Of a stretch of DNA of 64,000 bases, positions 3,156-60,500 are shown one piece after another. Each line of letters opens with the position of its first letter. The stretch's first letter is position 1. The notes under the pieces are model-generated. The model was not told the origin of the DNA. It saw nothing but the letters and a program-made list of their open reading frames with translations, and did not search any database. Made by a program: the position numbers and the translations under genes. This stretch comes from a virus. Taxonomy: Duplodnaviria > Caudoviricetes. The stretch spans positions 32,001 through 96,000 of the IMG/VR virus record IMGVR_UViG_3300030330_006022, one strand, 5' to 3'.

Positions 3156-3204
3156 GTATTAACAGTTACTAATTAATTTGATAATCCTCCCAGATTATAT
3201 TCAT

Positions 3205-22668: not shown

Positions 22669-22678
22669 GGAGAAATAG

Positions 22679-25659: not shown

Positions 25660-26255
25660 TGTCTTTTCAAGTAATTGCTGATTTTGAGAAAGAAATAGCT
25701 AATTTCTTCGGAGCTCCATATGCAGTAGCAGTGGATTGCTGCACACACGGAATTGAGCTTTGCTTAAGAATGAAGCAAGTTAAAAAAATAAAAGTCCCAA
25801 AGAGAACTTACTTATCTGTTCCAATGTTAGCTAACAAACTTAATATTGATCTGGAGTGGACCAATCAGGTGTGGCAAGATTATTATCATCTAACTGATGA
25901 CATAATTGATGCTGCTGTTTTATGGAGAAAGAACAGTTATATTGCTGGTACATATATGAGTGTGAGTTTCCAATTTAGAAAACACTTAAGTCTTGGTAGA
26001 GGTGGTATAATATTGTTTGATAAAGAAGAAGATTTCGACACATTGAAAAGAATGTCTTATGATGGAAGACACCCAGACCAACGATGGCACTTGCAGAATA
26101 TAAAAACTATGGGATATCATTACTACATGACTCCTGAAACAGCTGAACTTGGTTTACAAAAGCTTCCTGAAGCAATTGAAAGAAAACCAAAACAATGGGT
26201 TTATACAGATTGGCCCGATCTAACTACAATGGATTTTTTTAAGGAGAACAAATGA
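25659..26255 (+). CDS. DegT/DnrJ-like PLP sugar aminotransferase, short form
   Basis: FE..A..FG..AVAVDCCT, IIDAA, SFQFRKHL..GRGG. Confidence 0.8.
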   Translation: MSFQVIADFEKEIANFFGAPYAVAVDCCTHGIELCLRMKQVKKIKVPKRTYLSVPMLANKLNIDLEWTNQVWQDYYHLTDDIIDAAVLWRKNSYIAGTYMSVSFQFRKHLSLGRGGIILFDKEEDFDTLKRMSYDGRHPDQRWHLQNIKTMGYHYYMTPETAELGLQKLPEAIERKPKQWVYTDWPDLTTMDFFKENK

Positions 26256-28104: not shown

Positions 28105-28399
28105 AGATATAACATTTGAAGAATACTACGAGCACTACTTGACATTACACCAAAACAAATGGTGTAGAAGACTTCATGTTTTAGGACAGATAATGACTAT
28201 TGCTTTTGTTGTTATTTGTATTAAATATAGTTTGTGGTTATTGTTGCTAGCAACACCGTTTGTAGTTTATCCTTTTGCTTGGACTGGTCATTACATCTTT
28301 GAAAAAAATGAACCTGCTGCGTTTAAAAACCCTTTGTGGGCTAAAGCTTGTGATTGGGTTATGCTAAAGGATATAATAATAGGTAAAATACCGTTTTAA
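28097..28399 (+). CDS. DUF962/Mpo1-like membrane protein
   Basis: YLTLHQ..CRRLH, FAWTGHYIFEKNEPA..P. Confidence 0.8.
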   Translation: MSKDITFEEYYEHYLTLHQNKWCRRLHVLGQIMTIAFVVICIKYSLWLLLLATPFVVYPFAWTGHYIFEKNEPAAFKNPLWAKACDWVMLKDIIIGKIPF

Positions 28400-28409
28400 G
28401 GAGAAAAAA

Positions 28410-29261
28410 ATGAAAAAAGTATTAGTAACAGGTGGTTGTGGATTTGTAGGAAGTAATTTGGTAGATATACTGATTAATAGCGGTAATCATGTTACTGTTA
28501 TCGATGACCTGTCTTTTGGTAAAAAAGAATATTGTAATATAAAAGCAAAATATATATTTGATGATTTTAAAAAGGTGTTAAATAATCACGAAGAAAAATA
28601 TGATGTAATATATCATTTAGCAGCTGAGGCTAGAATACAACCATCTTTTAAAAATCCTCTGTATACTTGTGAAAACAATTCTTATGGAACTGCAATAGTT
28701 TGTGAATATGCAAGAAAAAACAATTCCATGATTGTGTATGCTGGTTCTAGTTCATTTTATGGTGGTGTGTATTTAAATCCATATGCATTCGCAAAATGGC
28801 AAGGTGAAGAAGTCATACAAATGTATACTAAAGTATATAATGTGAAAAGCGGAATAGCCAGGTTCTTTAATGTTTATGGGCCTAGAAACCCTTTGATAGG
28901 TCAATACACACCCGTGGTAGCTATTTTTGAACAGCAAATGCTAGACTTTAAACCACTAACAATTGTTGGAGACGGAGAGCAAAGAAGAGACTTTACTCAC
29001 GTATATGATATATGTCAAGGGTTAATTGACATTTCTTTGGAAGATAGACAAGGAGAGGTATACAACCTAGGAACAGGTAAAAACTTTTCCATAAATGAGT
29101 TAGCTGACTTATTTGGTGGAGAGAAAAAGTACTTACCTGCTAGACCTGGAGAAGTTAGAGTAACACTTGCTGACACATCTAAAATAAATAAAGCAACTGG
29201 CTGGAAAGCCAAATACGATTTAGAAAAATACATAAAGGAGTTTAAAAATGAAATTATCTGA
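28410..29261 (+). CDS. NAD-dependent epimerase (UDP-glucose 4-epimerase-like)
   Basis: VTGGCGFVG, HLAA, YAFAK, RFFNVYG, GDGEQRRDFTHV. Confidence 0.9.
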   Translation: MKKVLVTGGCGFVGSNLVDILINSGNHVTVIDDLSFGKKEYCNIKAKYIFDDFKKVLNNHEEKYDVIYHLAAEARIQPSFKNPLYTCENNSYGTAIVCEYARKNNSMIVYAGSSSFYGGVYLNPYAFAKWQGEEVIQMYTKVYNVKSGIARFFNVYGPRNPLIGQYTPVVAIFEQQMLDFKPLTIVGDGEQRRDFTHVYDICQGLIDISLEDRQGEVYNLGTGKNFSINELADLFGGEKKYLPARPGEVRVTLADTSKINKATGWKAKYDLEKYIKEFKNEII

Positions 29262-42392: not shown

Positions 42393-44198
42393 ATGCCAAA
42401 ACAAAAGAATGTACCTATAAAATATACTAGTAGAGATTTTACTACTATAAAACAAGACTTAATTGAACACGCCAAAAGATATTACCCAGATGATTATAAT
42501 GATTTTTCTGAGGCTTCTTTTGGATCTTTAGTGTTTGACACTGTTGCCTATGTCGGTGACGTATTATCATACTATGTTGACTATTCAGTTAATGAAAGTT
42601 TTTTAGATTCTGCTCTAGAATTTTCTAATATTAGAAAGCATGCTAAAAATTTAGGTTATAGATTTACTGGTGTTCCCGTAGCTGAGGGAATTATGGCTTT
42701 TTTTATTAGAGTTCCGTCTATTGTTGAGGGTAATGCTCCTGATACTGATTATCTTCCAATTTTAAAAAAAGGATCAGAGTTTGCTTCAGGTAATGGCTCA
42801 ACATTTACGCTTCTTGAAGATGTAAACTTTGGTGCCCCTGAGAATGATTTTATAGGAGCTACGTTTACACAAGATGGTGGAACACAAGAGTTTGCTGTAA
42901 GGGCATATGGGATGGTAAGTTCAGGAAAAGTTTTATCCACAGATATTGATTTGACTAGTGCAACATTTGAAAAATTCAGAAAAGTTAGAGTTGATGATGG
43001 ATCTGTTACCGAAATAATGAAAGTTGAAGACTCAGAAGGAAACATATTTTATGAAGTTGACTACCTAAGTCAAGAAACTGTTTTTATTGAAACTACAAAT
43101 CAAAGTGCCATGTCCGATGGAGTACGTTCAATAATCAAACCATTTGTAACTGCTAGAAGATTCACAGTTTTTCAAGAGAATAACAGTACTTTTTTACAAT
43201 TTGGTTTTGGAAGTGACAATGATGATGACTCTGGCCTTGCTGATCCTTCAAAAGTAGCAATAAAAATGCATGCTAAAGACCACATAACCCACACTGCTAT
43301 TGATCCTACAAAATTATTAGGCACTGATAAGCTTGGAATATCACCTCAAGGTACGATCTTAACAATAACTTATAAGAAAAACGATAGAGCTAATCCTTCA
43401 TCTGCTGCTAATACTATTAAAACAGTTGTAAAAGCAGATTTTAAATTTATGAACGAACAAAATTTAATACCAGCAACAGTCGTAACAGTTAGAAATAGTT
43501 TAGAGTGTTCAAATGAAAAACCAATGGTTGCACCACAACTATCTGTCACTAGCGATGAGTTAAAAATTAGATCGAGAAACTTTTTTGCAACTCAAAATAG
43601 AGCTGTGACTAAACAAGATTATGAAGCAATAGCCTACAATATGCCAAATAAGTTTGGTAGTTTAAAGAGAGTAAACATTGTCAACAATCCTTTCGCTACA
43701 AATAAAGAGTTAATTATGTACGTTGTATCTGAAAACAATGAAGGTCTTTTAACACAAACTGAAAGTATTACGAAACAAAATCTAAAGTCTTGGCTAGAAC
43801 AATACAGTTCTATTAATGATATAGTAAAAATTAATGATGCTAAAATAATAAACTTCGCTATAGATTTCGAGGTAAAAACAGATAACAGGTATGATACTAC
43901 CGGTGTTTTAGCTGATGCTGTTGATAGAATTAAATTTAAATACAGCGAAAAATTTTATATTGGAGAGCCAATATATATAAATGATATTTTCAACATTCTT
44001 TCAAAAACAGAAGGTGTGATTGATGTGGTGAAAGTAAAAATATTAAACAAATCTTCAAACGACGGTCCAGGTTATAGTTCTATACCATTTATTATGGATG
44101 ATGTTATAAGTAATGATGCTACATATTACAAAGCTCCAAAAAATGTTCTTTTTGAATTAAGATACCCAGACCAAGATATTACAGGAAAAGCTTCATAA
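42393..44198 (+). CDS. Baseplate wedge subunit, T4 gp6/J-like
   Basis: YTSRDF..IK..L, NESFLDSA, LQFG, QNRAVTKQDY. Confidence 0.85.
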   Translation: MPKQKNVPIKYTSRDFTTIKQDLIEHAKRYYPDDYNDFSEASFGSLVFDTVAYVGDVLSYYVDYSVNESFLDSALEFSNIRKHAKNLGYRFTGVPVAEGIMAFFIRVPSIVEGNAPDTDYLPILKKGSEFASGNGSTFTLLEDVNFGAPENDFIGATFTQDGGTQEFAVRAYGMVSSGKVLSTDIDLTSATFEKFRKVRVDDGSVTEIMKVEDSEGNIFYEVDYLSQETVFIETTNQSAMSDGVRSIIKPFVTARRFTVFQENNSTFLQFGFGSDNDDDSGLADPSKVAIKMHAKDHITHTAIDPTKLLGTDKLGISPQGTILTITYKKNDRANPSSAANTIKTVVKADFKFMNEQNLIPATVVTVRNSLECSNEKPMVAPQLSVTSDELKIRSRNFFATQNRAVTKQDYEAIAYNMPNKFGSLKRVNIVNNPFATNKELIMYVVSENNEGLLTQTESITKQNLKSWLEQYSSINDIVKINDAKIINFAIDFEVKTDNRYDTTGVLADAVDRIKFKYSEKFYIGEPIYINDIFNILSKTEGVIDVVKVKILNKSSNDGPGYSSIPFIMDDVISNDATYYKAPKNVLFELRYPDQDITGKAS

Positions 44199-45646
44199 TG
44201 ACTATAAAAAGATATTTTGCTACGGCAGATAATACAATTTCTAACGCTTTTGATCAATCTCTATTAACTACGAATAGAGCAACTGGTTCAAATATGGGAG
44301 AAGCAGACATACTTGAAGTGTTTCAAATATACGCCCAGTCTTCCTCCTCTTCTGGTCTTTCTAGTGAACTCTCTAGAGTATTAGTTCAATTTGACACCTC
44401 TGCAATTAGTACTGACAGAAGTAGTGGTGCTATTCCTGCTTCTGGTTCTGTATCTTTTTTTCTTAAACTTTACAATGCTCGTCACGCTTCAACGCTACCA
44501 GAAAACTATTCTATGACTATTTCTGCTGTTTCACAATCATGGCAAGAAGGTAATGGCTTAGACATGGTAAACTATACTGATAAAACATATGATTTAACTG
44601 GGTCTAATTGGGTTCGTAGAGGCTCAATGGGTGAATGGAATGTTACTGGTGGTACATATCATGCTTCCCCAACATACACAGCTACATTTAATGAAGGTTA
44701 CGAAGACTTAGAAGTTGACGTTACCACATTAGTTGAGCAGTGGGTTAATAGTGAAGGTAATGTTTTAGGTTCAAAAGACAACTATGGATTTGGAATCAGA
44801 TTGTCAGATTCTTTTGAATCAGCCCTTAAGTCGTTTTATACGAAGAAATTTTTTGCTCGCGGGTCAGAGTTTTACTACAAAAGACCTGTTCTTGAAGCTA
44901 GATGGGATGGCTCTGTGAAAGATGATAGAAGCTATTTTTTTGCTTCTTCTTCACTAGCACCCGCTGCTGATAACTTAAATACGTTATATCTATATAATAG
45001 TATTAGAGGTGTTTTAAGAAACATTCCTGCCGTTGGGACTAGTGATATTGAAGTTTCGCTTTACGACTCAGCTGGAGGATCACAAATAGGATCTACTTTC
45101 ACTGGTTCTCATGTTTCTACTGGTATATATAAATGTCAAGTCTTTGCTGACACTGCTGAAACTTCAATTGTAGATGTGTGGCATTCTGGTGGTGTTGAGT
45201 ATCACACAGGATCAATTACAGTTAATCCTTTTTCTACAAACATATACAACCCATCAGATCGTTATATACTTAATATTTCAAATTTAAAAGAATATTATGG
45301 ACCTAATGAGACTGCAAGGTTTAAACTTTATGTAAGACCGAGAAATTGGTCACCAAATATATATACTGTCGCCAAATCAGCACCTCAAACTACGACAATA
45401 TCAAGTGCTTCGTATGAAATATGTAGAGCATATGATAATTATCCCGTTATTCCATTTGGAACTGGCTCTACCAATCACACAATGTTATCTTATAACGTAT
45501 CAGGTAACTATTTTGATTTAGATATGTCAATATTTGAAACCGATCAAATGTATACAATTAAGTTTGCTTTTTATGATGATGGTGTAGGGTCTTGGAATGA
45601 ACAGTCATATAAATTTAATTTTAAAGTGAGAAGCGATGTCTATTAA
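44198..45646 (+). CDS. Baseplate/tail structural protein, beta-rich
   Basis: SRVLVQFD..WQEGNG..RPVLEARW pattern of beta-sandwich virion domains; TAATG coupling to gp6-like. Confidence 0.6.
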   Translation: MTIKRYFATADNTISNAFDQSLLTTNRATGSNMGEADILEVFQIYAQSSSSSGLSSELSRVLVQFDTSAISTDRSSGAIPASGSVSFFLKLYNARHASTLPENYSMTISAVSQSWQEGNGLDMVNYTDKTYDLTGSNWVRRGSMGEWNVTGGTYHASPTYTATFNEGYEDLEVDVTTLVEQWVNSEGNVLGSKDNYGFGIRLSDSFESALKSFYTKKFFARGSEFYYKRPVLEARWDGSVKDDRSYFFASSSLAPAADNLNTLYLYNSIRGVLRNIPAVGTSDIEVSLYDSAGGSQIGSTFTGSHVSTGIYKCQVFADTAETSIVDVWHSGGVEYHTGSITVNPFSTNIYNPSDRYILNISNLKEYYGPNETARFKLYVRPRNWSPNIYTVAKSAPQTTTISSASYEICRAYDNYPVIPFGTGSTNHTMLSYNVSGNYFDLDMSIFETDQMYTIKFAFYDDGVGSWNEQSYKFNFKVRSDVY

Positions 45647-48600
45647 AGATTTATTCAATAAAAAAATTGTTACACAAAACACGATAACAGAATTAACAAA
45701 TAGTGTAGAATCAATAGAGCTTGTTAAAGAAGTGGAAAAAAGAAACAGGACTTTTTTTCCAAATCTAGATTTTGCCGACCCTGCTTCGTTTGTTCATTTC
45801 GGCTCAGCAAAAGAATACTACACTTCTGCAATAAAAAGAATATATTCATCTTTTCCTTATGATGGATCTGAAACAGAAAAATTAAAGTTTAAAAATAATT
45901 CCACTTATCTTGATCAATGGATGTTAGAAAATAAATACCCTAGATCCACTGGGTATGCTTTGTTTTCTGCTAACGGATGGGGAACTGGTACAACTATTAA
46001 TGATGAAGACGGAGTAGCACAATATGGCCTTCCTGATTCCATAGAATACATTTATTCAGCTGGAGGAACTCATTCTGCTTCTATAGAACAACACACAGAA
46101 TCTGCTAATGTAATTACTGAAGGTTTAGCAAAAGCTTTTGAAAAAGCAGTTATATATGATACCAATAAAAACAGAACAACCAGTTTTAGAATGAAAATGG
46201 ATGATGGTATTAGTATACAGTTTTGGTTAAAAAAGGAAGCCTTTGATATATCTAAAACTAAAAAGGAAGTAATTTTAGATTTATGGAATGGTAACGCTTC
46301 TGATTCTGCTGACTATGGTAGACTTACTTTGGAAATATCTGGAGCTGCTGCTAATGAATCCTCAATTTATTTAACTTTGTATTCTGGTTCATCTGGTATA
46401 ACAAGACAAGCCATATGCACCACAGATTATGATTCTGGTTCTTTGGCAAATGGTGCTTGGACTCATCACTCTGTTACAGCTAGAGCAGCAAGTCAAAAAC
46501 TTTTTGTAAAATATTATAAAGATGGACTAATCAATAGTTCTTCTGTTTTTGCAACTAGTTTGACTTTGGGAGAAATACCTGGTAGAATTAATGGATACAT
46601 TGGTAGTCTACAGACATCTGCTCATGGTGACGCGTATCGTGACTCTGGGAACATGGTAGGTGCTGGTAAACTTTCAGCCTCCATGGATGATTTTAGGTTT
46701 TGGAAAAAAGCACTAACAAGTGAATATATCTATAACACTTGGTATTGGCCCATTGGTGGAGGTGTAAACACAGACGACTATAGAACTGATTTGGGGATCT
46801 ATTATAAATTCAATGAAGGAATAATGAACAACCCTTCATATGACTCAATAGTATTAGATTACTCTGGTAGAATAGCCAATGGTATATGGTATGGCTATGA
46901 TAGCTATTCAAGATCTACAGGATCTGCGTTTACAGAGACAGAACCTGGTGATCCAATTATAAGATCAGGTCATCCTTTGATTTCTAGTTTAATAACAGAA
47001 ATGGAAGCAAGTGGTTCTTTATATGATGAAACAAACACTTCTAACATATACGATTCCATTCCCGCTTGGTTAAGAGAAGAAGATGAAGAAAATAATAATA
47101 TAAAATACTTGTACCAAATACTCTCTTCATATTTAGACACACTATATACTCAAATTTCTGAAATACCAAAGTTAAAAGATAAAGACTATTTTTCAGGATC
47201 TTCTGAGCCGTATTTCTTTATGGAAAGATTATTGAAAGATCAAGGTCTAATAACTCCCAATGCATTTGTAGAAGGAGATGTCCTAGAATATTTTTGGGAT
47301 AGAAATAACACAGGTGACAGATTTGAAAAAAATATAGAAAACACAAAAAGAAAAATCTATAATAACATTTACAACAATTTAGAATACATATACAAAACAA
47401 AAGGAACAGAAAAATCATTTAGAAATCTTTTGCGCTGTTATGGTATTGATGACGAGTTGGTAAAACTAAATGTTTACACTGATAATGGTAAGCATTATAT
47501 AAAAGATAGATATAAAGACACCTCAGTAAAGACAAAGGTGTTAAATTTAAATAAAAAAAGCAGAACAGCAGGTAGAATTATACAAACTTCTTCGAGTGCT
47601 AATACGCTTACTTTTATATCTGGCTCTGGTGAGGAAATAAAACAAGAAAAATTTTCTGCTTTTTCGTTAGAAGGCGGAGTTATATTTCCACAGAAAAAAG
47701 ATTTTGGAGAAACAGGATACTATGAAGTAACCAGTCTATCCTCTTCTTTGTTTGGCTTTCACCAAGCTAATCCAGACGACCCTTCAGATTATACTTGGCA
47801 CAGTAATGATGTAGCAAATTTACAAGTATATGCTGTAAAGCCAAGTATTTTTTCTACTTCAGCTAAATTTGTTGTTACTAATTATGATGCTAGTATTCGT
47901 TTTGAAACTGATTTTTATGAAGATGTCTACGATGCACAGAGATGGAACTTTCAATTATCTATTAAACCAAATGGATACCCAAATGCTGGAGCATATTCAC
48001 AAGATGAAGAGCCGCAATACACTGCTAGGTTATATGGTATAACCCATCAATTTGGGGACGTTAAACATCAATTTGAGATCACTTCTCCTGTTAATTTTAC
48101 AATAGGTTCAGCTATTTTGTCAAATGCTAAAAGGGTTTACCTTGGTTGCCACGCAACAAACTTTACTGGGTCTTCACACATAGAAACAGATGTAGTGTTT
48201 GATTCTCTGAGAGTTTGGATGGATGAGTTAAATAATGAGTCTATAAAAATTCATAACTTGGATGCTTCTAACTATGGTCATGACAAAGTCTACAACAATA
48301 CTACAATATTTAATTATGGAATATCAAGTTCCATTGAGATTCCTGGCTATGATTCTCTAATTTTACACTGGAATTTTGATCAAAACTCTTCAGCAGATTC
48401 TTCAGGAGAGTTTGTAGTTAAGGATTTTTCAAGTGGCTCCGTGGACACGTTTGCGACAGCAAAAATAGTTATACAAGACGCAGGGGGAATATCACATGGT
48501 GACACATTTGGACTTGTTGATAGCGCAGGAACAGTAATTGAATATTTAGTAAATGGTGGCTTAGCTTTTGAATCTGGTGGTGGCAGTGGCGCTGTTGTTC

Positions 48601-51600
48601 CTGTAGGTTTTCTAGGTGTTGGTGGTGGTATTGCTGGTAAAGTAAAAGCAGCTAAAGCAATAGAACATGCAATTAACAATACAACAACTACAAACTATAC
48701 TGCTGTTTCAAATGGTGTAGATACAGTAACAATAACTCAAGGTACAAAAGGGCCCATAGGAAACAGGACGAATCTAGATTCAATTGGCTTTACAACTGTG
48801 TCTAATTTTACTGGTGGTTTTAGTACAGACAAGTATGGGTGGGCATCTAAAATTTTAGAGAGTCAAAATGAAGGTCGCGCTTTAGGTTTTCCTGCTAATG
48901 ACACAAATCCAGTAAAAACTGAAATGATATACTCTAGGAAAAAAGAGCTACCAGAAATTTCTTTTACCAACGACAGAATTACTATTATGGGTAATGAAGA
49001 AGAATATTTCTTAGAGGATGAGGATACAACTGATAACGTATTTGCTTTAGAAAAAAGCATGTATCAATCGATATCAGAAGAGATGTTAAGAACATTTTCT
49101 ACTGTTAAAGAATATTCTAATTTATTTACTAAACCTCTAGACTTTTATAAATTAGAATATAAGAAGTTAAGATTAGCTAGAGGTTTGTTTTTTGATAGAG
49201 TAGAAGAAAACCCTAATTTAGACAAATACACAGACTACTTTAAATGGATAGACTCTTCCTTATCATTTTTTATAGAACAATTAAAACCAGCATCTGTGAC
49301 GTTTTTAAATAGTGTTGCCAATGTTGTAGAAAGTCATATATTTGAGAGACCAAAATACGACAGAAAGTTTCCGCTTTTGGACACTAAAACAGCAACCCAA
49401 GGTGTAGTAAAGTCTGTTGGGGAGTTGACCTACAATTGGAAGTTTGGTCACTCACCTGAATACAAAACAGGAGCAACTCCAAACACTCATTGTCTTTGGA
49501 AAAGAGAACGGGAAGAAAGAACAGGTGATTTAGCTTCTGTTAGAAATACTATTAGAGATGTGTTAACAACTGAAAATAAAACTTATATTGCTTTTCTGGG
49601 GGATAATGATAAAAATGCTTATCTAAAACCAAACTATGTAACTAGAAGGTTTTCAAAACCCTACAAACTAGACGTTGATTTAGGTGTAAACTTACATGGT
49701 GGTACAAACTATAACCAACAAAAAAATAGAAATTTCATTTACAATGTTACTAGACCACATGGAGCTAAAACAAATTTAGGAATACCAGTTAACGTAGCTG
49801 TTGTTGGTGTTGGACCAGGACATGACATAGTTAATTCTAACTTGTGTGATGATATTGAAGATCCATCAGAAGTTAAAGATTATAACTTTGTTATAACAGT
49901 TGGAAAAGACTCCTCTGGTGACGGACAGGCACCAGCTACTGCATCTTTAGAATATGCTTATAAAGTTAAAGGACACTATGCAGCTCCGTTCAATTTGATA
50001 TCAGGATCTGAGACAGCTGGTGCCAATAAATTGGTTAATGACAGCTATTCAGCTTCAGTTATATTAACAAACCTACATTCTGATACGACATATTTTGAAA
50101 ACGATATCCCAATGCAAGGTCCTTTTACACAAACTTGGGTTGGAGGACATCAGTCTAGACATGTTGACATAAACCAATACGACCCAGCATTAAGAACTTC
50201 AGGTGGAGCTGACCCTACATTAAACAATCTAGATGATCAATATTCAAGACCAGAAGCATTTAGATTACTATTTGGTGACCACCCTGATGAAGCTGTAAAT
50301 GATGGAGCTATAGGTATCGTAGGACCAGATTATGGCGGTCCTTACCCAGATACAACCAGACAATGGGCAATTTATTATCGCGACTTTAGAGGTAAAAGAC
50401 CATATAACATTCAAAATGTTAGTGGCTCTAGAACTATGTTGGGTAATTATAACAAAAGATATGAATATTTTAACTCTGTTGGAAGATTAGAAAACAATAA
50501 CAGATTGAAGAAAGCAGCTTCTGACACTGAATATAATTTAAGTGGTACATTTTTACCACCAGAAATACAAACAGCTTTGCCTCAGACTACTCATCCATTG
50601 ACTATGTTTGGTATATCACCTTCATCAAATGGAAATGTTTTTGGTAATGTGATATCAGAATCTGCTTCTCCAGATGGAGAAAATAATAGAATAAACGCAA
50701 TCAATCAAATAATAAGACCAATTGTTTTAGCATCTGGTTCAATGCTTGTTACCGGTTCTACACTTTACAAAGCACCATATTCTGCTTCACTAAATATACA
50801 ACCAATACCTTATCAAGGATTACATCAAGCTTATCACTTTCAAGTCTCTGGAGCAACTGACTATTACGAAATATATTCAGGTTCTTTTGACGTACAAACA
50901 GTGCCTCATGCTGGTATCCATCAAACTTACTATTTTAAAGTAACGGGATCAACCCACAATGAAATAATTGATAACATTTATACAGGTTCTTTTGATATTG
51001 ATGCGGCCCCAAGAGCCCCAATTCATGATTTTTTGTATTTTAGAATCTCAGGATCTACTGATGCAACTGATAGTAGTTTATTAAAAATTACAGCAAGTTC
51101 AACTCAAAAACATTTTGAAATAGATAATAACGGCTTCACAGGTACCACTGATGCCATAAGAGTTCCAACAAAGACAGTTTCTTCAACAAATGTAGCAAGT
51201 ATTAGAAGCGCTACAGATGCTGACAATAAGCTTTTTGTGGACACTACATATAGCGGAATAGGTACTAGTGATGTTTCTGTATCTTTCTGGTTTAATCCTT
51301 ATGACATTAATGGATCTCTTGGAACTGACGACGATGCACAAGAAACTTATATAAGATTTGCTGATAATTTTCAAGATGCTTTAATTATACACTGGAATAA
51401 ATACAGGTTTACAGTTGAGGTTGAAAACACATCAGGCACAGATAGATTCAAAAAATTTACTACGAATTATAACAACAGCACCGGTTGGAAACACGCAACA
51501 GTTACAGTAGGTATGAATAATTTAAGTACAGTAAGCCCAAAATTATACATTAACGGAGTAGAACACACAGGCGTGTTTGGTTCATTCAACGCACCAGGAG

Positions 51601-54600
51601 GAAGTTCAAGAACTATTGACATGTTGATTGTAGGATTTAAAAATGGAAACTCTTCTAATGGACCCGCAATGCATGATCTTGTTATTTGGGATAAAGTGCT
51701 GAATGCAGACGAAGCTTGGGAAGCATATAAAAATGGTTTAAAAAATCAAGATTTCTCAACCCACAGTGCAAATTCTAATATAGTTAATCATTATTTATTT
51801 GGTGAAGAAGCAACTCTATCTCATCTTTCTTCTGGTGACACCGTTGATTCTCCTAGAAATTTGTCTTCAAATTATGGTAGTGAACCTGGGAATGTTCTTA
51901 TAGACAGCACCAGTAATAGCATGAAAATACTAGATCACTCAATGAATCAATATAACGCTAACTTAACAAACACTCAATTTTGGGATAGTTTAAAAACTTC
52001 ACTAAACACAGAGTTTTCAGGATATACAGCAAATTATATTTCAGGAGGAATGGCACAATTCTTTTTAAGAAAAGATGCCCCAGGGCAGAACAGTATAAAT
52101 GTTGTCACAATCGGTAATGCTTTTTCATCTCCTGCTGGTCGACCTGGAAATGCTGCTATAGCTAGTGATTTAGAAGATGGAGATACTATCTCTATTTCTG
52201 GTAGTACTTTTACTGTGAGACACACAACATCAGGTTCAGCACCAACAGACTTTGTTGTTGGTGAATTGTATAGAAATGCTATACTGTTTCCAGAGTCAAC
52301 AGAAAATCGCATTCATTTAAAACATGAAGACTACACCAACCCTTCATCAGACAATATATCTTTTTCATTTTGGATTAGATCAAATAATGCAACTGGTGGA
52401 GGAAACAAATTTATATTTTTGTCAGAAGATGCCTCTTCAGACAATGCTATTTGGATATATATTTATGAAGACGAATTACGAGTCTACACTTTAAATGGTA
52501 GTGGTACTAAAAACCATAAGTACAATGGAGCTATAGTAGAAGGAATATGGGATCACTTTACCATTTTTATTAACACAACAGATATGACGGATGTTAATGT
52601 ATATAAAAATGGAACATTATTGTCTACTACTGGTGAATCAGGATCAGGTACAGGAGCAACAAGAGATGTAAGGAAGATCTACATAGGAGATGCTGATGGT
52701 AACTCAAGTAATAGTGAACTTCAAGGCTCTCTGCAAGACTTTGTAATCTGGAACACTGGTTTAAATTTGTATGATGCCAAAACTCTTTACAATTCTGGGT
52801 CTTGGTTTGATCCTAGTTCACATATTTCTGCTTCTTATATACATGATTGGTGGCCTCTTGGTAACGGACCAGGAATGCCTTCATCAGGATCTAACATAAA
52901 CTCTGTTACTACTTTTGAACCCGAGGTTGGCTCTCACCCACTTGTAAAAGGAACAGACTGTGACGATGAAGTTTTTATAACAGATGGGATAATTGAAAGA
53001 GCAAAAGACGATCCAGTTTTTTATACTCACGTTGCTCACCATATTGATGCTAACACAAACTATTCTGCTTCAAGTGTTGACAATGGGTCTACTGGTAGAA
53101 TTAATATGCACCAAACCTCCTCTGTTGTTATTACAGACACACTAGCAAATTCAAACGATACATTTTCCAATGAAGCAGCTTTTGGTGTTGATGTTCGTAT
53201 AAATTATATATCTGGTGCCGTTCATGGACAGCAAGTTCAAATTGAAGATGAAGTTTTCTTTATCTCAACAGCTAGTTCTCCAACAACTTGGGCATCTAGT
53301 TCTGGTGGAATCCAAGTAAACTCCACAGGATCAGAATTTTGGAATCATTTATCTGGTGCTATCCAACAATACCTTCCCGAATATACTGCTTCTTATTACA
53401 TATATGACAATCAAGCACGTTTCTTTGTTAGAAATGGAGAATCTGGATCACAAGCAAATGATACTTTATCTATTGGTGGCGGAAGCTGGTCAGACCATGG
53501 TACAGTTATTGGTTCTGATATGTCCGCTAGTTCTAATCTCACGGACGGAGACACTTTAAGTCTTGATGGAGACACTTTTACTTTACGATATACAAATTCT
53601 GGCTCAGCCGCAGGAGACTTTGTCGTTGGATCAAGTTATAGAAAAGCTTTAAATTGGAAAGCAGCCACAGGCGCTTCAGCAAAAAAGATGAGTCTAAAAA
53701 ATGTAAGTTTTGATGGAGCTAGTTTAGAAGATGTAATATCATTTTCTTTTTGGGTTAAGTTTGATCAGGATGACACTCCTGGTGACGTACAATACATACT
53801 TAATGGGTATGACTCTGCGGGCAATTTAGCAATTGGTATTTACAGATCTGGTAAAGATATACTTATAGAACTTTATAATACTAGCAGTGCAGTGCGAAAC
53901 TATTTTACGACTAGTGATGCCTTACTATCTGGTAAATGGTACTCAGTAAGCATAAAAGTTGACACCTCTGATATTGACACTACATGTGTTGTTTATATAA
54001 ATGGCCAATTGCAGTCAATCACTGGGGCAGGTTCAGCACCTGGTGCAGCTCGAACCTTGGGAAGAATTTATATTGGAGATTCTGCTGGTGATTTTCACTC
54101 AAACGAACTACAAGGCTCTTTACAAGACTTTGTAATTTGGAATACAGGATTGGGATCACAAGATGCTGAAATTCTTTACAATTCAGGTTCTTGGTTAGAC
54201 ATACACTCTCACCCTTCTGCATCTTATATATGGGATTGGTGGAGACTAGGAAATGAAGATCCTAGTAAGCCTTCGGGTTCTGCTTGGACTTCGGTGCCTA
54301 TAGTGCCGACAATTGGAAGACACGATTTGCAGTTTGACGACGATGCTGCTTCAAAGATTTTTGTAACAGACGGAATCATTGAGAACAAAAAAACCAACTC
54401 TGAATTAAAAACTCATATAGCTAGTACAATAGCAGCACAAACAGTGTTCTCAGCTTCCGTTAGTTCTATACTTTTAGAGGTAACTGCGGCGACAGATATA
54501 CATTCAACAGGTTCTTTCTCAAAGGATGGAACAACGTTTGGATCATTATCAGGAATTGAGTTTGTAAAATACGGAAATTATTACTCTGGTTCGGTTCCTA

Positions 54601-57533
54601 ATAATACACTTGTTTTTGAAGGAAAGACTTTTCACGTATCAGCTTCAACAACACCAACAGATCCTTATACAATTGTTGGAAACAATGTTTACGTTTATTC
54701 TCATCAAGATCTTGACACAACTTGGTGGGGTAATTTATCAGGGGCAATAGAAGCCGCTCTTCCTGCTTTTACAGCCTCCTATTTTCAAAGTGGTACTATG
54801 GGTCACTTTTTTGTTAGAAACGCCACCACAGGCTCTACAGGCAACACAACCATAACAGAATCAGGCGACACCTTTATGAATGAATATGTTGTAGTAGGAA
54901 CTGATACTTCTGGTAGTTCAACATTAGCAGATCAAGATACTTTAAGAATAATGGATAATAACCCTCGGGCAGATTTATCCGTACCACATACCATAACAGT
55001 TGGTCACACAACTTCAGGTAGTGTCGGAACAAACACAGGTGCAAATTATAGAAAATCTTTATGCTGGCCACCAGCAGCGGGATCTAGTAAACAAGTTCAT
55101 ATTAAAAATACGCAATATGAAAATCCAACATCTAATAATATAGCTATATCTTTTTGGTTAAAAAGAGATCATACCTTTTTCCAACACGCTGATTCTAGAG
55201 TAATATTTGAATTTCATAGCGATACAGCAGCAGATTTTGTGCTTAGAGGGTACACGCTTCCTGAAAGCTTAGTAGTTCTTGCAGCAGGAAAAACCGGAGC
55301 TGGAATTGGGGATGCGTACCGATTTACCTTAACGGAAACAGCAGGCATTTGGAATCATTATGTATTAAATATAGATACAACCGATGTTGAAACAGATTCA
55401 GTAACTTTACACATGAACGGGCAAATCCAAAGCCCGGAGTATACAAATTATTCAACCTCTGGAGAATTATATGATCTTGATGAGATATATATTGGTGATG
55501 CTAAACAAGATAATGACTCAAGTGAGTTGCAAGGAACATTACAAGATTTTGTCGTTTGGAATACACCTCTAACAGCTCAAGATGCAATAACGCTTTATAA
55601 CTCGGGATCGTGGTTAGATATTCACTCTCATGTCTCAGCTTCTCACATATGGGATTGGTGGATGCTTGGAGAAGAAACATCAAAAAACCCTGATGATGCT
55701 TTAGCAGGCTCTGATTTTCCAATATTGCCAACAATTGGAAGACACAGTTTGTTTGCTGGTGATGATGCTATAGGTATAATAAATGTTTCAGGAGGTATAA
55801 AACACAACAGTAAAACAAATTCAGATTTTTGGAACTCTATATCAGCATCAATAGAAGCAAACACAGAGTTTAAAACTCATGTAAGTTCTTCAAGTTCTAG
55901 TCTCTACACTATGACAGCATCAACTCAAATAACTGGTGCGATGATGAGATTGGGAGAAAAGGACAGCTTACCAACCGTTGAAGCTTCTTTTACAAAAACC
56001 GGAAATACTTTCTCAATTTCTCAACAAGTTATTAGAGGAGCTGATACACTAAACCAACAAAGATATGCAAACGCAGGAGCTAATGCTGGAGATAGATTCA
56101 CAATAAGTCCAAATTATGAAGAATCTGTTACCACTCAATTTATACTAGACATAAGCGGTGGACAAGCTGACACATCTTCTCCATTTTACACCAAAGTTGG
56201 AAATGATTATCATATATTCTCCTCAGCTTCAACAAATGATGAATTTTGGTTAAGAGTTTCTGGAGCAGTTTATGCTGCTTACCCTGCTTATAGTACAATA
56301 AGCTCTTCTACTTTGAATGTCACAGAATCACTTACAGGCCCAACAAGATTTAGTTTTACTGGTTCTCAGCCTCCAGATGTATGTTCTATACTTGATCTAG
56401 ACCACATTAACAATAGAAATTTATCAACGACTGGTTCATCTTTTAATACCCCTGGTGGGATTTTAGGGGGTTTTGATCAGGTTGTTGAATGTGCCTTAAT
56501 TAATGTCATTGAGAAAGAATCTGATTTCCTAACAGGGTCAACAAGAAACAAAACAGTTATAACATCACGCTTTTCTGCACCTGGTGGAGTTGAAGTACAG
56601 ACATACGGTTATCTTGACGCTTATGCTAGAGAATATTCAGTTCACAATTCATTGAACTATAGAAACTTGTCTGTTAGAGGTTCAGGAAGTGGTGAAAGCG
56701 GCTCTGTTGACGGAATGAGTATAAGAATGAACAACCAGATTGGTACTAGAGATGGACTAAGAACACTCTATCAACGTCCCATGGGACTTGCAGGAACTGA
56801 TTTAGTTTACGGTTCAGCTAATTCTTCAGATTATGAATACTCTGCTTCTTTTCATAAAGTTCCTAGAAACACACTAGTAACTATACGCCCTAGTTCTTCT
56901 GTCAATGAAATAAGGGCAACCGCTTCAATAACACCTTTAGATGGAGGACATACTACTTCCACCAGTGGCTTGACTTTTATTATCGATGATGGTGTTAATT
57001 TACCAATCACTTATACCTTTGGCGCATCTACAGCAAGAGTAAGTGAAACAGAAACATCCATTTTTTACACTATTAATAGTAGTTCTATGACTAGCGTTGC
57101 TACAGCAATAGATAAAATTGTACCTGCTATCAATCTAGCATTTAATAATAAAGATAGTATAATTCAAGCAACAGATGAAACCACAATTGTTGGTTTAACT
57201 TCTTCTGTGCCTGGAAGTTTTATTAACGGTAAAACAATCACCGGAACATATATTGCTGATGGCATTGGATCTATGGTTGGATTTACTGGTGGAGAAATTT
57301 CTGTTGTACCTAATATTGTTGAAAGAAGCAATAATTATAACTTTAACTCTGTTTTGCCTTCATCTGATTACAATTATAGTTGGGTAACTTCTTCACTTGG
57401 AGATAATTATAGTGTAAGAAGTGGAACACAAAAAGTGTTTGGTTATTGGCCCAAAAATGGTATACATTCTTCGTCTACTGGATTTGATTCGGCAATAACC
57501 TTCCCAACAGCCTCAGAAATAAGTGGAGTTTAG
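45636..57533 (+). CDS. Giant baseplate/tail-fibre protein (3965 aa) with gp7/P2-gpI-like motif and multiple LamG domains
   Basis: IYKTKGTEKSFRNLLRCYG; repeated LamG signatures SFW..W.H..YxNG..IG..G.LQDFVIWN. Confidence 0.8.
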   Translation: MSIKDLFNKKIVTQNTITELTNSVESIELVKEVEKRNRTFFPNLDFADPASFVHFGSAKEYYTSAIKRIYSSFPYDGSETEKLKFKNNSTYLDQWMLENKYPRSTGYALFSANGWGTGTTINDEDGVAQYGLPDSIEYIYSAGGTHSASIEQHTESANVITEGLAKAFEKAVIYDTNKNRTTSFRMKMDDGISIQFWLKKEAFDISKTKKEVILDLWNGNASDSADYGRLTLEISGAAANESSIYLTLYSGSSGITRQAICTTDYDSGSLANGAWTHHSVTARAASQKLFVKYYKDGLINSSSVFATSLTLGEIPGRINGYIGSLQTSAHGDAYRDSGNMVGAGKLSASMDDFRFWKKALTSEYIYNTWYWPIGGGVNTDDYRTDLGIYYKFNEGIMNNPSYDSIVLDYSGRIANGIWYGYDSYSRSTGSAFTETEPGDPIIRSGHPLISSLITEMEASGSLYDETNTSNIYDSIPAWLREEDEENNNIKYLYQILSSYLDTLYTQISEIPKLKDKDYFSGSSEPYFFMERLLKDQGLITPNAFVEGDVLEYFWDRNNTGDRFEKNIENTKRKIYNNIYNNLEYIYKTKGTEKSFRNLLRCYGIDDELVKLNVYTDNGKHYIKDRYKDTSVKTKVLNLNKKSRTAGRIIQTSSSANTLTFISGSGEEIKQEKFSAFSLEGGVIFPQKKDFGETGYYEVTSLSSSLFGFHQANPDDPSDYTWHSNDVANLQVYAVKPSIFSTSAKFVVTNYDASIRFETDFYEDVYDAQRWNFQLSIKPNGYPNAGAYSQDEEPQYTARLYGITHQFGDVKHQFEITSPVNFTIGSAILSNAKRVYLGCHATNFTGSSHIETDVVFDSLRVWMDELNNESIKIHNLDASNYGHDKVYNNTTIFNYGISSSIEIPGYDSLILHWNFDQNSSADSSGEFVVKDFSSGSVDTFATAKIVIQDAGGISHGDTFGLVDSAGTVIEYLVNGGLAFESGGGSGAVVPVGFLGVGGGIAGKVKAAKAIEHAINNTTTTNYTAVSNGVDTVTITQGTKGPIGNRTNLDSIGFTTVSNFTGGFSTDKYGWASKILESQNEGRALGFPANDTNPVKTEMIYSRKKELPEISFTNDRITIMGNEEEYFLEDEDTTDNVFALEKSMYQSISEEMLRTFSTVKEYSNLFTKPLDFYKLEYKKLRLARGLFFDRVEENPNLDKYTDYFKWIDSSLSFFIEQLKPASVTFLNSVANVVESHIFERPKYDRKFPLLDTKTATQGVVKSVGELTYNWKFGHSPEYKTGATPNTHCLWKREREERTGDLASVRNTIRDVLTTENKTYIAFLGDNDKNAYLKPNYVTRRFSKPYKLDVDLGVNLHGGTNYNQQKNRNFIYNVTRPHGAKTNLGIPVNVAVVGVGPGHDIVNSNLCDDIEDPSEVKDYNFVITVGKDSSGDGQAPATASLEYAYKVKGHYAAPFNLISGSETAGANKLVNDSYSASVILTNLHSDTTYFENDIPMQGPFTQTWVGGHQSRHVDINQYDPALRTSGGADPTLNNLDDQYSRPEAFRLLFGDHPDEAVNDGAIGIVGPDYGGPYPDTTRQWAIYYRDFRGKRPYNIQNVSGSRTMLGNYNKRYEYFNSVGRLENNNRLKKAASDTEYNLSGTFLPPEIQTALPQTTHPLTMFGISPSSNGNVFGNVISESASPDGENNRINAINQIIRPIVLASGSMLVTGSTLYKAPYSASLNIQPIPYQGLHQAYHFQVSGATDYYEIYSGSFDVQTVPHAGIHQTYYFKVTGSTHNEIIDNIYTGSFDIDAAPRAPIHDFLYFRISGSTDATDSSLLKITASSTQKHFEIDNNGFTGTTDAIRVPTKTVSSTNVASIRSATDADNKLFVDTTYSGIGTSDVSVSFWFNPYDINGSLGTDDDAQETYIRFADNFQDALIIHWNKYRFTVEVENTSGTDRFKKFTTNYNNSTGWKHATVTVGMNNLSTVSPKLYINGVEHTGVFGSFNAPGGSSRTIDMLIVGFKNGNSSNGPAMHDLVIWDKVLNADEAWEAYKNGLKNQDFSTHSANSNIVNHYLFGEEATLSHLSSGDTVDSPRNLSSNYGSEPGNVLIDSTSNSMKILDHSMNQYNANLTNTQFWDSLKTSLNTEFSGYTANYISGGMAQFFLRKDAPGQNSINVVTIGNAFSSPAGRPGNAAIASDLEDGDTISISGSTFTVRHTTSGSAPTDFVVGELYRNAILFPESTENRIHLKHEDYTNPSSDNISFSFWIRSNNATGGGNKFIFLSEDASSDNAIWIYIYEDELRVYTLNGSGTKNHKYNGAIVEGIWDHFTIFINTTDMTDVNVYKNGTLLSTTGESGSGTGATRDVRKIYIGDADGNSSNSELQGSLQDFVIWNTGLNLYDAKTLYNSGSWFDPSSHISASYIHDWWPLGNGPGMPSSGSNINSVTTFEPEVGSHPLVKGTDCDDEVFITDGIIERAKDDPVFYTHVAHHIDANTNYSASSVDNGSTGRINMHQTSSVVITDTLANSNDTFSNEAAFGVDVRINYISGAVHGQQVQIEDEVFFISTASSPTTWASSSGGIQVNSTGSEFWNHLSGAIQQYLPEYTASYYIYDNQARFFVRNGESGSQANDTLSIGGGSWSDHGTVIGSDMSASSNLTDGDTLSLDGDTFTLRYTNSGSAAGDFVVGSSYRKALNWKAATGASAKKMSLKNVSFDGASLEDVISFSFWVKFDQDDTPGDVQYILNGYDSAGNLAIGIYRSGKDILIELYNTSSAVRNYFTTSDALLSGKWYSVSIKVDTSDIDTTCVVYINGQLQSITGAGSAPGAARTLGRIYIGDSAGDFHSNELQGSLQDFVIWNTGLGSQDAEILYNSGSWLDIHSHPSASYIWDWWRLGNEDPSKPSGSAWTSVPIVPTIGRHDLQFDDDAASKIFVTDGIIENKKTNSELKTHIASTIAAQTVFSASVSSILLEVTAATDIHSTGSFSKDGTTFGSLSGIEFVKYGNYYSGSVPNNTLVFEGKTFHVSASTTPTDPYTIVGNNVYVYSHQDLDTTWWGNLSGAIEAALPAFTASYFQSGTMGHFFVRNATTGSTGNTTITESGDTFMNEYVVVGTDTSGSSTLADQDTLRIMDNNPRADLSVPHTITVGHTTSGSVGTNTGANYRKSLCWPPAAGSSKQVHIKNTQYENPTSNNIAISFWLKRDHTFFQHADSRVIFEFHSDTAADFVLRGYTLPESLVVLAAGKTGAGIGDAYRFTLTETAGIWNHYVLNIDTTDVETDSVTLHMNGQIQSPEYTNYSTSGELYDLDEIYIGDAKQDNDSSELQGTLQDFVVWNTPLTAQDAITLYNSGSWLDIHSHVSASHIWDWWMLGEETSKNPDDALAGSDFPILPTIGRHSLFAGDDAIGIINVSGGIKHNSKTNSDFWNSISASIEANTEFKTHVSSSSSSLYTMTASTQITGAMMRLGEKDSLPTVEASFTKTGNTFSISQQVIRGADTLNQQRYANAGANAGDRFTISPNYEESVTTQFILDISGGQADTSSPFYTKVGNDYHIFSSASTNDEFWLRVSGAVYAAYPAYSTISSSTLNVTESLTGPTRFSFTGSQPPDVCSILDLDHINNRNLSTTGSSFNTPGGILGGFDQVVECALINVIEKESDFLTGSTRNKTVITSRFSAPGGVEVQTYGYLDAYAREYSVHNSLNYRNLSVRGSGSGESGSVDGMSIRMNNQIGTRDGLRTLYQRPMGLAGTDLVYGSANSSDYEYSASFHKVPRNTLVTIRPSSSVNEIRATASITPLDGGHTTSTSGLTFIIDDGVNLPITYTFGASTARVSETETSIFYTINSSSMTSVATAIDKIVPAINLAFNNKDSIIQATDETTIVGLTSSVPGSFINGKTITGTYIADGIGSMVGFTGGEISVVPNIVERSNNYNFNSVLPSSDYNYSWVTSSLGDNYSVRSGTQKVFGYWPKNGIHSSSTGFDSAITFPTASEISGV
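52161..56040 (+). repeat. Three ~1.4-kb internal repeats, each carrying a LamG domain
   Basis: ELQG(S/T)LQDFV(I/V)WNT..LYNSGSW..DWW at about 52720, 54105 and 55525, with DNA-level similarity. Confidence 0.85.
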
Positions 57534-57534
57534 A

Positions 57535-60500
57535 ATGAGCAATATACCTTTAGACTTTGTTGGTTTAAATACATTAGTAAAAGAAGAGATAGACCCAGAT
57601 ACAAATACAATAGGAAACACAAATGCAAAAGCATTAAAGTTTAATAAGACTGATGAGATATACAATTTAGAGCTAACCCAATCAGCTGGGTATTCTTATT
57701 TGGTAAATTACGGTGCGCAGGGATATACTCAAACAGGCCCTTTGTCTTATTCTTTTTGGATAAAAATGAACTGGGATGCGCTTTCTAGTTTGACAATACC
57801 ATTTGCTTTGATCTCTTCTGGACACTGGACAAATGGTCAATTTTTTACTATCGTACTTTACGAATCTGATGGGTCAAGCCTCACGTACAGAATTAACACA
57901 AATAATACCGGCGGTACCGATACAGTTTTTGATGGGTCAAGAATATTAAATATTGATTTTACTGATTCTAGTTCTAATACAAGAGCTCTTATTAGTCAAG
58001 TTGTTCTTAACGCTTTTGAAGCTTTAAATTTAACTAATTGGCAATTTTCTCGGGAAGGTTTTGGAGAAAACCCCGTCTTTATAAAAGCTACGTCACCATT
58101 ACAAAAAATTACTTTTAATGATGATGATATTGGTGGAGCTATATCTCCCATAAGAACACCTTTGCTTTACAGAATTATCGGCTTTGATACTACAGGAGAT
58201 AGTTTTTTTGGTATAATTAAAGATGATTACTTACTTCACACACCAGGGTTGGCAGATGGTGGAAATAATACTGAATTTATATTTAGGCACTCAGCCAGTG
58301 ATGGAACAATAAAAACAGCCACTTGGGAGTTAAATACTTACCTTAGCGGTCTTGATTGGGCAGGTTGGGACGACTGGGCTCATATAGTCGTTTCTTGGGA
58401 TGGAAACTTTAATAATTCTGTAATACTTTATGTAAATGGAATAAACATAGGAGCAGGATCTCAAAACAGCGTAGACAAAATAGAAAAGAAAGCCATAAGT
58501 CAGATTGCGATAGGTTTTCCAAAATCTATACCAACAGTAACCACATATCACCCTAGTTCTTTAAATGCAGAAATTAAACATGTTGCCACTTACAACAAAA
58601 CGCTAAATCAAAACGATATTGATTTAATATATTCTAACGGGTTTGTAGAAAATATTGCAAAAATATCAACACTAAAACCTTTCATAATAGATTATTGGAA
58701 ATTTGGAGATGACTTATCATTAAACTTTGATGATACAATTCAAAATAATACTGATATTGAACCATCTTATGGAATAAACACATTAAGAACTGTCAACACT
58801 TTTACCATATCAAAAGGCCTAATACCAGAAATAAGAAATAAAGAAGTTCTTTTAACTAAAGTTGTTCGAACAAGAGTGGCAAATGAGTATTTTACTATGA
58901 ACCCAGATTTAGTTGATGATGATGGTAATGTTATATATGTCGACTCAACTAATCAAGTTTTAAGAACAAATGGTCAAATTGAATATGAAGATTATTTAAT
59001 TGCTTTAAATATACACAGAAATGGACCTTATGGGTATTCATCTTTTAAACAAATTAGGGCTCATGAAAACCCTGTTACAAGATATCATAAAAAAAATAAT
59101 ATTTTTTCTTTTTCTCCAGAAGAAGGTTTTAGAAGAACAGTTATCAAAGATGGAAAAGTAATATCTCAACACACAGATAAACGAGGACCAGTAACAAATT
59201 TTGAAAATGAAAGCCCAGTAATAATGAACAAAAAACCCTTTGAAGCAATTGTGGATGTTTTTATAGAACAGGGTGGAGACCAATTTGAAGAAAAAGTAAA
59301 ACTTAAAACATCTTATGCAAGTCAACTGGATTACTTTAACAATGAAATAATAAATCAGCAGCTTGGGTTGGATGAACAAAGAGATCACTTTTATGAAGAA
59401 ATGAAAAGTTTGTATATGGGAGTTGATCCTGAATCTTCAATAGTTACGGGTGTGGATAGCGTAAAGTTATCTCAAACTATTTTTCCAACAGATCTTTATA
59501 CAAATAAATCTTTTACCAAACAAAGACCCAGCTTTAATTCTAATTTTTGGAGAAAAAATAGAAATGATAGGATTCTTTTAGATCAAGATAATGGCTTTGG
59601 GTATTCTGTTCCTTCTCAATCAATGTGGCCTTTAGATGCGGTAGCAAATTTTGAAACTCAAACCCTCATCGGCTCAGATGGAAATTTTAGAATCTTTAGC
59701 CCCTCTTTAGCAAAAGCTATAAATGACGGCGGCACAGTGACAAATGCTTCTAGATTTACATTTCCCGAGTCTCACCCTTCAACCCCAGGCAGTATATTTT
59801 TTGAAGTTGTTAACAAAGGGTCTTTGGCTGCTCGTTTTTACGGAAGACAGAGCAGTCATTATATAGGAACCAATGAAGTAGATGGACTTAACGTAAAATT
59901 AAAAATTGAACCTGCGATTGCTCATCTGTACGATGGATTTAGTAGAGTTGCTACAAATATGAGAACTGCTTTTGTTGGGTCTCCAAATAATTATGACTCT
60001 ACAACAGACTTTACTCTTAACACATACACAAGAAAAGGAGCTTATATAGCTAGAAGTGCTGGTTTACACAACTCATCTAGCCCACAAGTGGCAAGAGTAA
60101 ACTATATGAGAGTAAAAAACATATATTTAGATAATATTAACACAAATGATAGTAATGCTAGATATAGAGCTAAATGGTTAGCTGATTTTAGAAACTGTAC
60201 TTTATCCTACTGGAACGCAGCAGGTGCTGATTCTAGTAATAATACTGGATTTGGTACACTTATGATAGATTTTAGTTCTAGTAAATCACCAGTAGCCCAT
60301 ACTGGCGATGGAGTTGTAACAGGTACTGGAACAAACCGACAAAGTGGTAATGGTCCCGGTGCTCTATCAATATCAGGATCTGGAGATATTGATAAACTAA
60401 GAAGGCACATATTTTTTGCTACAAGTTCTGTTAATGTAAGTTCTACTTCTGGTGGAGGAACTACTACACACTATACCACTACAACAGGTGACAATATGCT

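Follow-up and report, generated by a model that had tools for sequence, protein, structure and literature searches.

The stretch of DNA analysed here, called the window, comprises 64,000 nucleotides (nt), positions 32,001 to 96,000 of the IMG/VR virus record IMGVR_UViG_3300030330_006022; this record is a contig of 114 kb, ~63% complete, with a G+C content of 31-38% and with nearly all of its open reading frames (ORFs) on one strand. One of these encodes a giant protein, P0001, whose conserved scaffold consists of amino acids (aa) 1-1690 and 3617-3965, interrupted in one loop by a long array of seven short β-strands followed by seven small domains, hereafter termed bodies. This array is the subject of the present analysis; it is read as a nested stalk, in which the chain would run out as single strands and return as the bodies to which these strands belong.

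Regarding its genomic context, conserved gene order assigns P0001 to the baseplate module of a T4-like marine phage that has not been cultured. The placement is made because a gp6-like baseplate wedge gene neighbours P0001 and the order is kept in relatives: the gp6-like gene is followed by an ORF of 482 aa, by the ORF of P0001 and by a second giant ORF (>2159 aa), and the same succession of gp6-like, ~480-aa, giant and giant ORFs occurs in L002, L003 and the contig of P0009. The genes upstream include one for a late sigma factor and one weakly matching a baseplate hub/lysozyme, and a PhoH gene also lies nearby. The giant protein itself shows no sequence or profile similarity to any named baseplate protein in PHROG, Pfam or the deposited phages: it has no PHROG match, its Pfam matches are sub-threshold and uninformative, and neither tblastn nor blastn gave a match among 50,697 deposited phage genomes; a viral contig scan using a window segment returned no informative identification, and neither did a search of the window's own contig with PF07068, the control of which was silent. 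As for its family, which comes from marine metagenomes, 205 stretches were confirmed in the JGI metagenomes and 506 in IMG/VR; none of the >500 IMG/VR members has an annotated function, and the Atlas label of P0001 is only "hypothetical protein, Viruses".

Table 1. Positions in the window of the P0001 gene, of the parts of its insert and of the neighbouring gp6-like gene.
Feature	Position	Strand	Amino acids	Remarks
Giant ORF P0001	45636..57533	+	3965 aa	Holds the whole feature; defined by ORF calling, family alignment and synteny with the gp6-like gene in relatives
Upstream scaffold anchor GENNRIN	50676..50696	+	1681-1687	Last conserved scaffold motif before the chain leaves
Seven short β-strands a1 b2 a3 b4 a5 b6 a7	50730..51053	+	1699-1806	Strings located in frame
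Body 1 (A1)	51054..52169	+	1807-2178	Small α/β domain contiguous with strand 7; LamG head 1 (aa 1857-2060) inserted; presumed distal tip
Body 2 (B2)	52170..53186	+	2179-2517	Hairpin, LamG head 2 (aa 2218-2419), helix and strands; presumed partner of strand 6
Body 3 (A3)	53187..53537	+	2518-2634	Small domain devoid of LamG; strand 5 as presumed partner
Body 4 (B4)	53538..54554	+	2635-2973	Carries LamG head 3 (aa 2674-2882); strand 4 as presumed partner
Body 5 (A5)	54555..54923	+	2974-3096	Small domain devoid of LamG; strand 3 as presumed partner
Body 6 (B6)	54924..55982	+	3097-3449	Carries LamG head 4 (aa 3144-3355); strand 2 as presumed partner
Body 7 (A7)	55983..56480	+	3450-3615	Terminal-type small domain adjoining the re-entry of the chain into the scaffold; presumed partner of strand 1
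Downstream scaffold anchor SRFSAPGG	56565..56588	+	3644-3651	~20 residues after the upstream anchor in L020
gp6-like baseplate wedge gene	42393..44198	+		phrog_219, E 1.3e-17

Anatomy of the insert in P0001

Two conserved motifs of the scaffold, GENNRIN and SRFSAPGG, bracket the array; they are only ~20 residues apart in L020, a relative free of the insert, while in the window the array between them is ~1,950 residues long. Therefore, the array is inserted in a loop of the scaffold, and its start and its end must be near each other in space, a requirement that an out-and-back chain fits and that a one-way string of seven domains does not naturally satisfy. The same module of strand array and body array was also observed at other insertion points, in L121, L029 and L031; in L121, an ORF of 4988 aa, it occupies aa ~1960-3500, after the SKFSAPGG motif of the scaffold, and consists of 7-8 strands, an inner module of ~700 aa and seven small domains. 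The nest thus behaves as a transferable unit.

The outgoing part opens with a single a-type strand, after which a ~32-aa hairpin unit, made of a b and an a strand, occurs three times; the seven strands occupy aa 1699-1707, 1715-1722, 1730-1739, 1747-1754, 1762-1771, 1782-1789 and 1797-1806. The original prediction, made from the DNA letters and their translations, had listed seven strand-like strings in a row, and all seven were found in frame in the ORF 45636-57533. Among four orthologues with seven layers, the strand region is the best-conserved part of the insert, with a mean pairwise identity of 65% (up to 86% in the linkers) against 33-61% for the bodies. The pattern of the strands, as read from their residues, is amphipathic, with aromatic and aliphatic residues alternating as in sheet strands that have one face buried.

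As for the returning part, P0001 contains an internal tandem repeat of ~460 aa (blastp E down to 1e-46), and hidden Markov models (HMMs) built from pieces of this repeat delimited the bodies. These models resolved seven alternating bodies, A1 B2 A3 B4 A5 B6 A7, over aa 1807-3615, recovering all of those that had been predicted, with boundaries that differed by a few residues. The helix-plus-strands parts of the A and B bodies cross-match, and for this reason the two types are taken as variants of one small fold. The B bodies start directly at a hairpin; A3, A5 and A7 instead have an extra contiguous strand before the hairpin, in a position like that of the strand preceding the hairpin in A1. 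The further claim that each body lacks a first strand is therefore not readable from sequence alone. A profile of the LamG-less A bodies found nothing among PDB sequences (best E 0.16). Two isolated small domains, at 48450-48830 (aa ~941-1065) and 56960-57340 (aa ~3775-3900), look by eye like nest units with a contiguous first strand; the nest HMMs did not detect them, and this resemblance, being by eye only, is not used as evidence.

Four LamG-like segments were found in the bodies, equal to the number of heads proposed, and their fold was confirmed on predicted models. In the model of the relative L006, the head of the B body aligned with 8hgg_C over 202 residues (VIA-align Z 19.6, root-mean-square deviation 3.0), and with pentraxins at Z 17-19; for the model of the window protein, Foldseek gave an E of 2.4e-11 to laminin LG4-5. 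Whole-model fold searches were dominated by these LamG matches and carried no information on the small domain or on the placement of the strands. In Pfam, the window protein stays below the curated cut-offs, with 16.6 bits versus 22.9 for PF02210 and 23.2 versus 23.8 for PF07953, while its homologues carry a precomputed PF13385 (Laminin_G_3); because the scores of the window protein are sub-threshold, its LamG membership rests on fold and homologues. PF07953 is the family of N-terminal receptor-binding domains of clostridial neurotoxins; the segment that it matches is located at 52260-52520 (aa 2210-2296), and structural matches to BoNT and TeNT Hc domains were obtained as well; these reflect the shared lectin-like jelly-roll and are no sign of a toxin. 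A fifth, weaker LamG-like segment (E 4e-8 to the LamG HMM) occurs in the N-terminal scaffold, at 46179-46724 (aa 182-363), and most family members have it at the same place.

Number and order of strands and bodies in relatives

If each strand belongs to one body, relatives should gain or lose the two in matched pairs, as the original prediction had it. Strands were counted by eye and with a hairpin HMM, bodies with HMMs, in every complete relative fetched. In the lineage of the window, seven strands and seven bodies are present in P0001, L002 (P0004), L003 (P0005) and L014; eleven of each occur in P0003, five in L004 (P0006), three in L005 (P0009), L006, L008/9, L035, L029 and L031, and one in L010/11, L017, L019, L021 and L033. 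A second lineage, reached via L096 and its full-length form P0157, has strands of one type and one LamG-bearing tip domain, followed by small domains devoid of LamG; here the counts are eight and eight in P0157, P0159 and P0162, six and six in P0158 and P0164, and two and two in P0171-P0173 and L022, with probable counts of eight, five and three of each in P0161, P0170 and P0169, respectively.

Strands and bodies are, therefore, equal in number at nine different depths across the two lineages (1, 3, 5, 7 and 11; 2, 6 and 8; 3 and 5 probable), and no complete gene with unequal numbers was found among those examined. Two candidate exceptions were rejected. The mismatch in L016 is an artefact of the contig end, since its ORF stops ~60 nt before it and the frame of the near-identical L015 continues; L121 and L096, considered as tandem small domains that might be self-sufficient in the absence of outgoing strands, both have strand arrays further upstream. 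Longer outgoing arrays with a different strand motif were also noted in L027 (aa ~1780-1900; at least eight strands before the tip domain) and in L018, and both contigs end before the bodies.

The tip domain separates the strand array from the body array, which means that both could not be altered by one tandem duplication or deletion, and equal numbers at nine depths imply selection for a one-to-one structural correspondence. Simple tandem-repeat stalks are the commonest type in phage and bacterial adhesins, and the ~460-aa repeat, taken alone, looks like one of them; the strands might then form an independent element, either a β shaft or a flexible linker, preceding bodies arranged as beads on a string, with the equal counts due to coincidence or to recombination. 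A one-way stalk of this kind would have no compensating element elsewhere in the protein, whereas the strand array co-varies one-to-one with the bodies in all the complete genes examined. Along with these counts, which include one paired loss in antiparallel register (see below), the beads on a string are opposed by the disorder of the strand region when modelled alone and by the ends of the loop insertion, which a seven-domain string would leave far apart; this explanation, already disfavoured, is the least probable of those considered.

Regarding the register, the most informative protein is P0164, with six layers. A global alignment of its strand region with that of the eight-layer forms required one gap, which removes exactly strands 2 and 3. 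In a domain-by-domain score matrix, its six bodies correspond to bodies 1, 2, 3, 4, 5 and 8 of P0157, P0159 and P0162, so that bodies 6 and 7 are missing, and bodies 2 and 3 are retained at 60-79% identity. Nested pairing, in which strand i goes with body 9-i, predicts the loss of bodies 7 and 6, while parallel pairing predicts that of bodies 2 and 3; the register in P0164 is thus antiparallel. The other six-layer protein, P0158, shares 75% identity with P0157 where their nest regions align and is devoid of strands 4 and 5 and of bodies 4 and 5, a loss that fits the nested prediction but does not discriminate it from the parallel one.

A second line of evidence comes from P0003, with eleven layers, in which the middle strands are one of a3 type and three of a5 type and the middle bodies are three of A3 type and one of A5 type. 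The multiplied strand type (a5) and the multiplied body type (A3) match, as the nested pairing of a5 with A3 predicts, and the types follow each other in the sequence that a nest demands: agreement between a and A types is found in four of four pairs with nested pairing versus two of four with parallel pairing, and that between b and B types in four of five versus three of five. Both ends of the series remain recognisable whatever the depth, namely strands 1 and 2 with the terminal body on the outside and the last strand with A1 on the inside. The reverse-order correspondence proposed at the outset is supported both by the loss of strands 2-3 with bodies 6-7 in P0164 and by the type matching in P0003; taken together, the matched counts and the register support the nested interpretation.

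As for the way layers change today, the hybrid strands of P0158, L004 and L012 have junctions that fall within homologous strands and linkers, and the changes look like paired unequal recombination in both arrays. As for its origin, the nest may have arisen by successive insertions into the same loop, which is one of several conceivable histories.

Structural models and the proposed stalk

Two AlphaFold2 (AF2) runs were made with alignments cut from the fetched loci (11 and 15 rows) and were read through the per-residue predicted local distance difference test (pLDDT) and the β or coil state. The first covered aa 1690-2640 of the window protein, namely the seven strands and bodies 1-3 (11 rows), and reached a pLDDT of 68 and a predicted template modelling score (pTM) of 0.53. 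Strands 1-5 were modelled as coil with pLDDT 25-32, strand 6 as β at ~55 and strand 7 as β at 74-86, and the cognate bodies of the last two, B2 and A1, were well modelled. A strand region able to fold on its own had been named as the outcome that would speak against nesting, and it was not seen: strands 1-5 stayed as coil in the absence of well-modelled partner bodies.

The second run covered the complete three-layer nest of L006 (aa 1545-2490, 946 residues; 15 rows), with pLDDT 74 and pTM 0.60. All three strands were β (pLDDT ~65, 64-67 and 71-91), and every body, including the terminal one, was modelled at pLDDT 70-90. The outer two strands of L006 are homologous to strands 1 and 2 of the window, which were disordered where their outer bodies were absent. 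The agreement of the models with the nest is indirect; it is consistent with it and is no proof.

The L006 model bears on two further explanations. It was computed as a monomer and still ordered all three strands, which disfavours a domain swap in which the strands would complement the bodies of a neighbouring copy of the protein, the array acting as an oligomerisation device in the baseplate. T4-type baseplate proteins are established as multimeric, and a swap would require matched counts just as nesting does; nevertheless, the innermost strand is contiguous with body 1 and the ends of the insert must meet within one chain, so that such an exchange appears very unlikely. The same model lends some weight to a path that runs out and back in the same way past bodies that are already complete, the strands zipping by β-augmentation onto their edges or onto the inter-domain linkers in a two-pass stalk. 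Indeed, the strands that precede the helix in its terminal A body are no fewer than those of A1 with A1's own strand included, and A3, A5 and A7 own a contiguous strand equivalent to the one that precedes the hairpin in A1. The B bodies do not have such a strand, however, and the outgoing strands are amphipathic and better conserved than the bodies; moreover, every array of small domains examined, including that of L121, is accompanied by an outgoing strand array of about the same number. On balance, complete bodies with zipped strands are unlikely, if less so than the domain swap.

Several points weigh against the nested reading. The test that discriminates the register consists of one event, in P0164, along with the type matching in P0003, and a tree of the B bodies, which placed the single B of the three-layer proteins inconsistently, was dropped. 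The counts of P0161, P0169 and P0170 depend on one tip domain (helix segment) that the HMM missed. Both AF2 alignments are shallow, and the way the models were read did not give strand-body contacts directly; in the window model, strand 5 is disordered despite the presence of A3, and A3 itself is poor, with pLDDT 37-78. Finally, given the extra strand of the A bodies, the outgoing strands of the A levels may extend a sheet that has no vacant position for them.

With these points taken into account, a nested out-and-back stalk, in which each outgoing strand belongs to one returning body in reverse order, is the best explanation of the insert, with a probability of about three in four. According to this model, the chain would leave the scaffold and lay down seven short amphipathic β-strands in succession; the distal domain A1, with its LamG head, would fold next, and the chain would then return to the scaffold through six more bodies. 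Strand 7 would pair with body 1 and strand 6 with body 2, the series ending with the pair of strand 1 and body 7. The outcome would be a rod-like stalk crossed at each level by two passes of the chain, held at a single anchor point on the baseplate protein and displaying four heads of the LamG type (concanavalin-A-like lectin fold), which would probably bind host-surface glycans. Layers would be gained and lost only as sets of one strand and one body, making the length and the valency of the arm tunable.

A more general statement is also probable, although it is held a little less firmly: the architecture would be recursive, with a small α/β fold nested in itself up to 11 times, each level contributing one outgoing strand and one returning body to a two-pass stalk anchored at a loop; the length of this stalk and its lectin valency would evolve as strands and bodies are gained or lost in pairs. 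At the sequence level, the order a1 b2 ... a7 followed by A1 B2 ... A7, with counts from 1 to 11, fits such a recursion.

Regarding function, the innermost unit carries a LamG head in both lineages without exception, and the geometry of the nest presumably puts this unit farthest from the scaffold. In the window lineage, a further head is found on every second level, giving 1, 2, 3, 4 or 6 heads (four in the window). Stalks of the second lineage, with 2-8 levels, carry one head, and their remaining levels act as plain spacers. The insert can thus be read as a receptor-binding arm that would project from a protein of the baseplate module, its length and valency being tuned between phages; glycan binding by the heads is suggested by their fold only.

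Neighbouring genes and known systems

Two further giant ORFs flank the baseplate genes, one at 33175-41904 (2909 aa) and one at 57523-63999 (>2159 aa), which runs off the window; neither has a PHROG match, and the only Pfam match, to DUF2889 on the 2909-aa ORF, is sub-threshold. In the relative L003, the downstream neighbour of the giant gene carries PF13385 (LamG). The P0001 gene overlaps both of its neighbours by 11 nt: its ATG is inside the end of the 482-aa ORF (45636-45646), and the GTG of the next ORF is inside its own end (57523-57533). L002 and L003 have the same overlap in their gene calls (3001-3011), and these overlaps suggest translational coupling across the baseplate module. The database copy of the protein, P0002, has 3936 aa versus 3965 aa for the longest ORF, its start being called 29 codons downstream (45636-45722). 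Finally, a large island of glycosyltransferase, sugar-nucleotide and epimerase genes, with two glycosyltransferase matches to phrog_2170 and one epimerase match to phrog_540, occupies positions 16913-29261 and immediately precedes the late sigma factor gene and those of the baseplate.

Insertion of one domain into another is frequent; to our knowledge, however, the nests described so far do not exceed two or three levels, and their depth is fixed. The closest documented architecture is that of RrgA, the tip adhesin of the pneumococcal pilus, in which D2 holds D3 as an insertion and D1 in turn holds D2/D3; the binding domain is distal, and D1 and D2 are each built from N- and C-terminal segments (PMC5333627). 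Related tip pilins of Gram-positive bacteria belong to the same kind. Like RrgA, the proposed P0001 stalk would be an elongated adhesin in which the chain goes out and back and the binding domain is at the distal end. However, RrgA has three levels of unrelated folds, a fixed depth and isopeptide locks; the P0001 nest would have seven levels (1-11 in relatives) of one repeated small fold, with a single strand as the outgoing half, and its depth differs between close relatives. No sequence relationship between the two was found. A literature search returned no described precedent for such a nested arrangement beyond RrgA, which is no proof that none exists; nesting repeated in series over 7-11 levels, with modular expansion, appears to be undescribed.

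The depth of the nest looks freely variable, with 1-11 levels in one family and relatives 75% identical in the nest region that differ by exactly two layers. If the nested reading is true, the stalk starts and ends at the same point of the scaffold and every level is crossed by two passes of the chain; the first strand waits for its partner over ~1,800 residues during folding, and layers change only through coordinated events at two distant places of the gene. This would represent a general and undescribed way for phages to grow a receptor-binding arm from a loop, along with a natural template for the design of extendable, rigid protein rods; it also points to the likely host-recognition arm of a large group of uncultured marine myoviruses.

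Three other systems share single traits with the insert. The four heads of the window have the jelly-roll fold of the LamG, pentraxin and concanavalin-A-like domains (PF13385, PF02210), with the difference that in the window the domain is always inserted inside a small α/β domain. In the "evolved" Dit proteins of siphophages, carbohydrate-binding modules are inserted in loops of baseplate or tail proteins; as in P0001, lectin-type modules are plugged into the loops of a conserved scaffold, presumably for host binding, but the insertion is of a single level, whereas that of P0001 would be recursively nested and of variable depth. Finally, in the tandem-repeat stalks of Ig-like and BIg domains of adhesins and phage decoration proteins, length follows the copy number of the repeat and varies between relatives, as in P0001. 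These stalks are contiguous and run one way; in P0001, instead, a second array of single strands co-varies one-to-one with the bodies, in reverse order, and both ends of the insert return to the same anchor.

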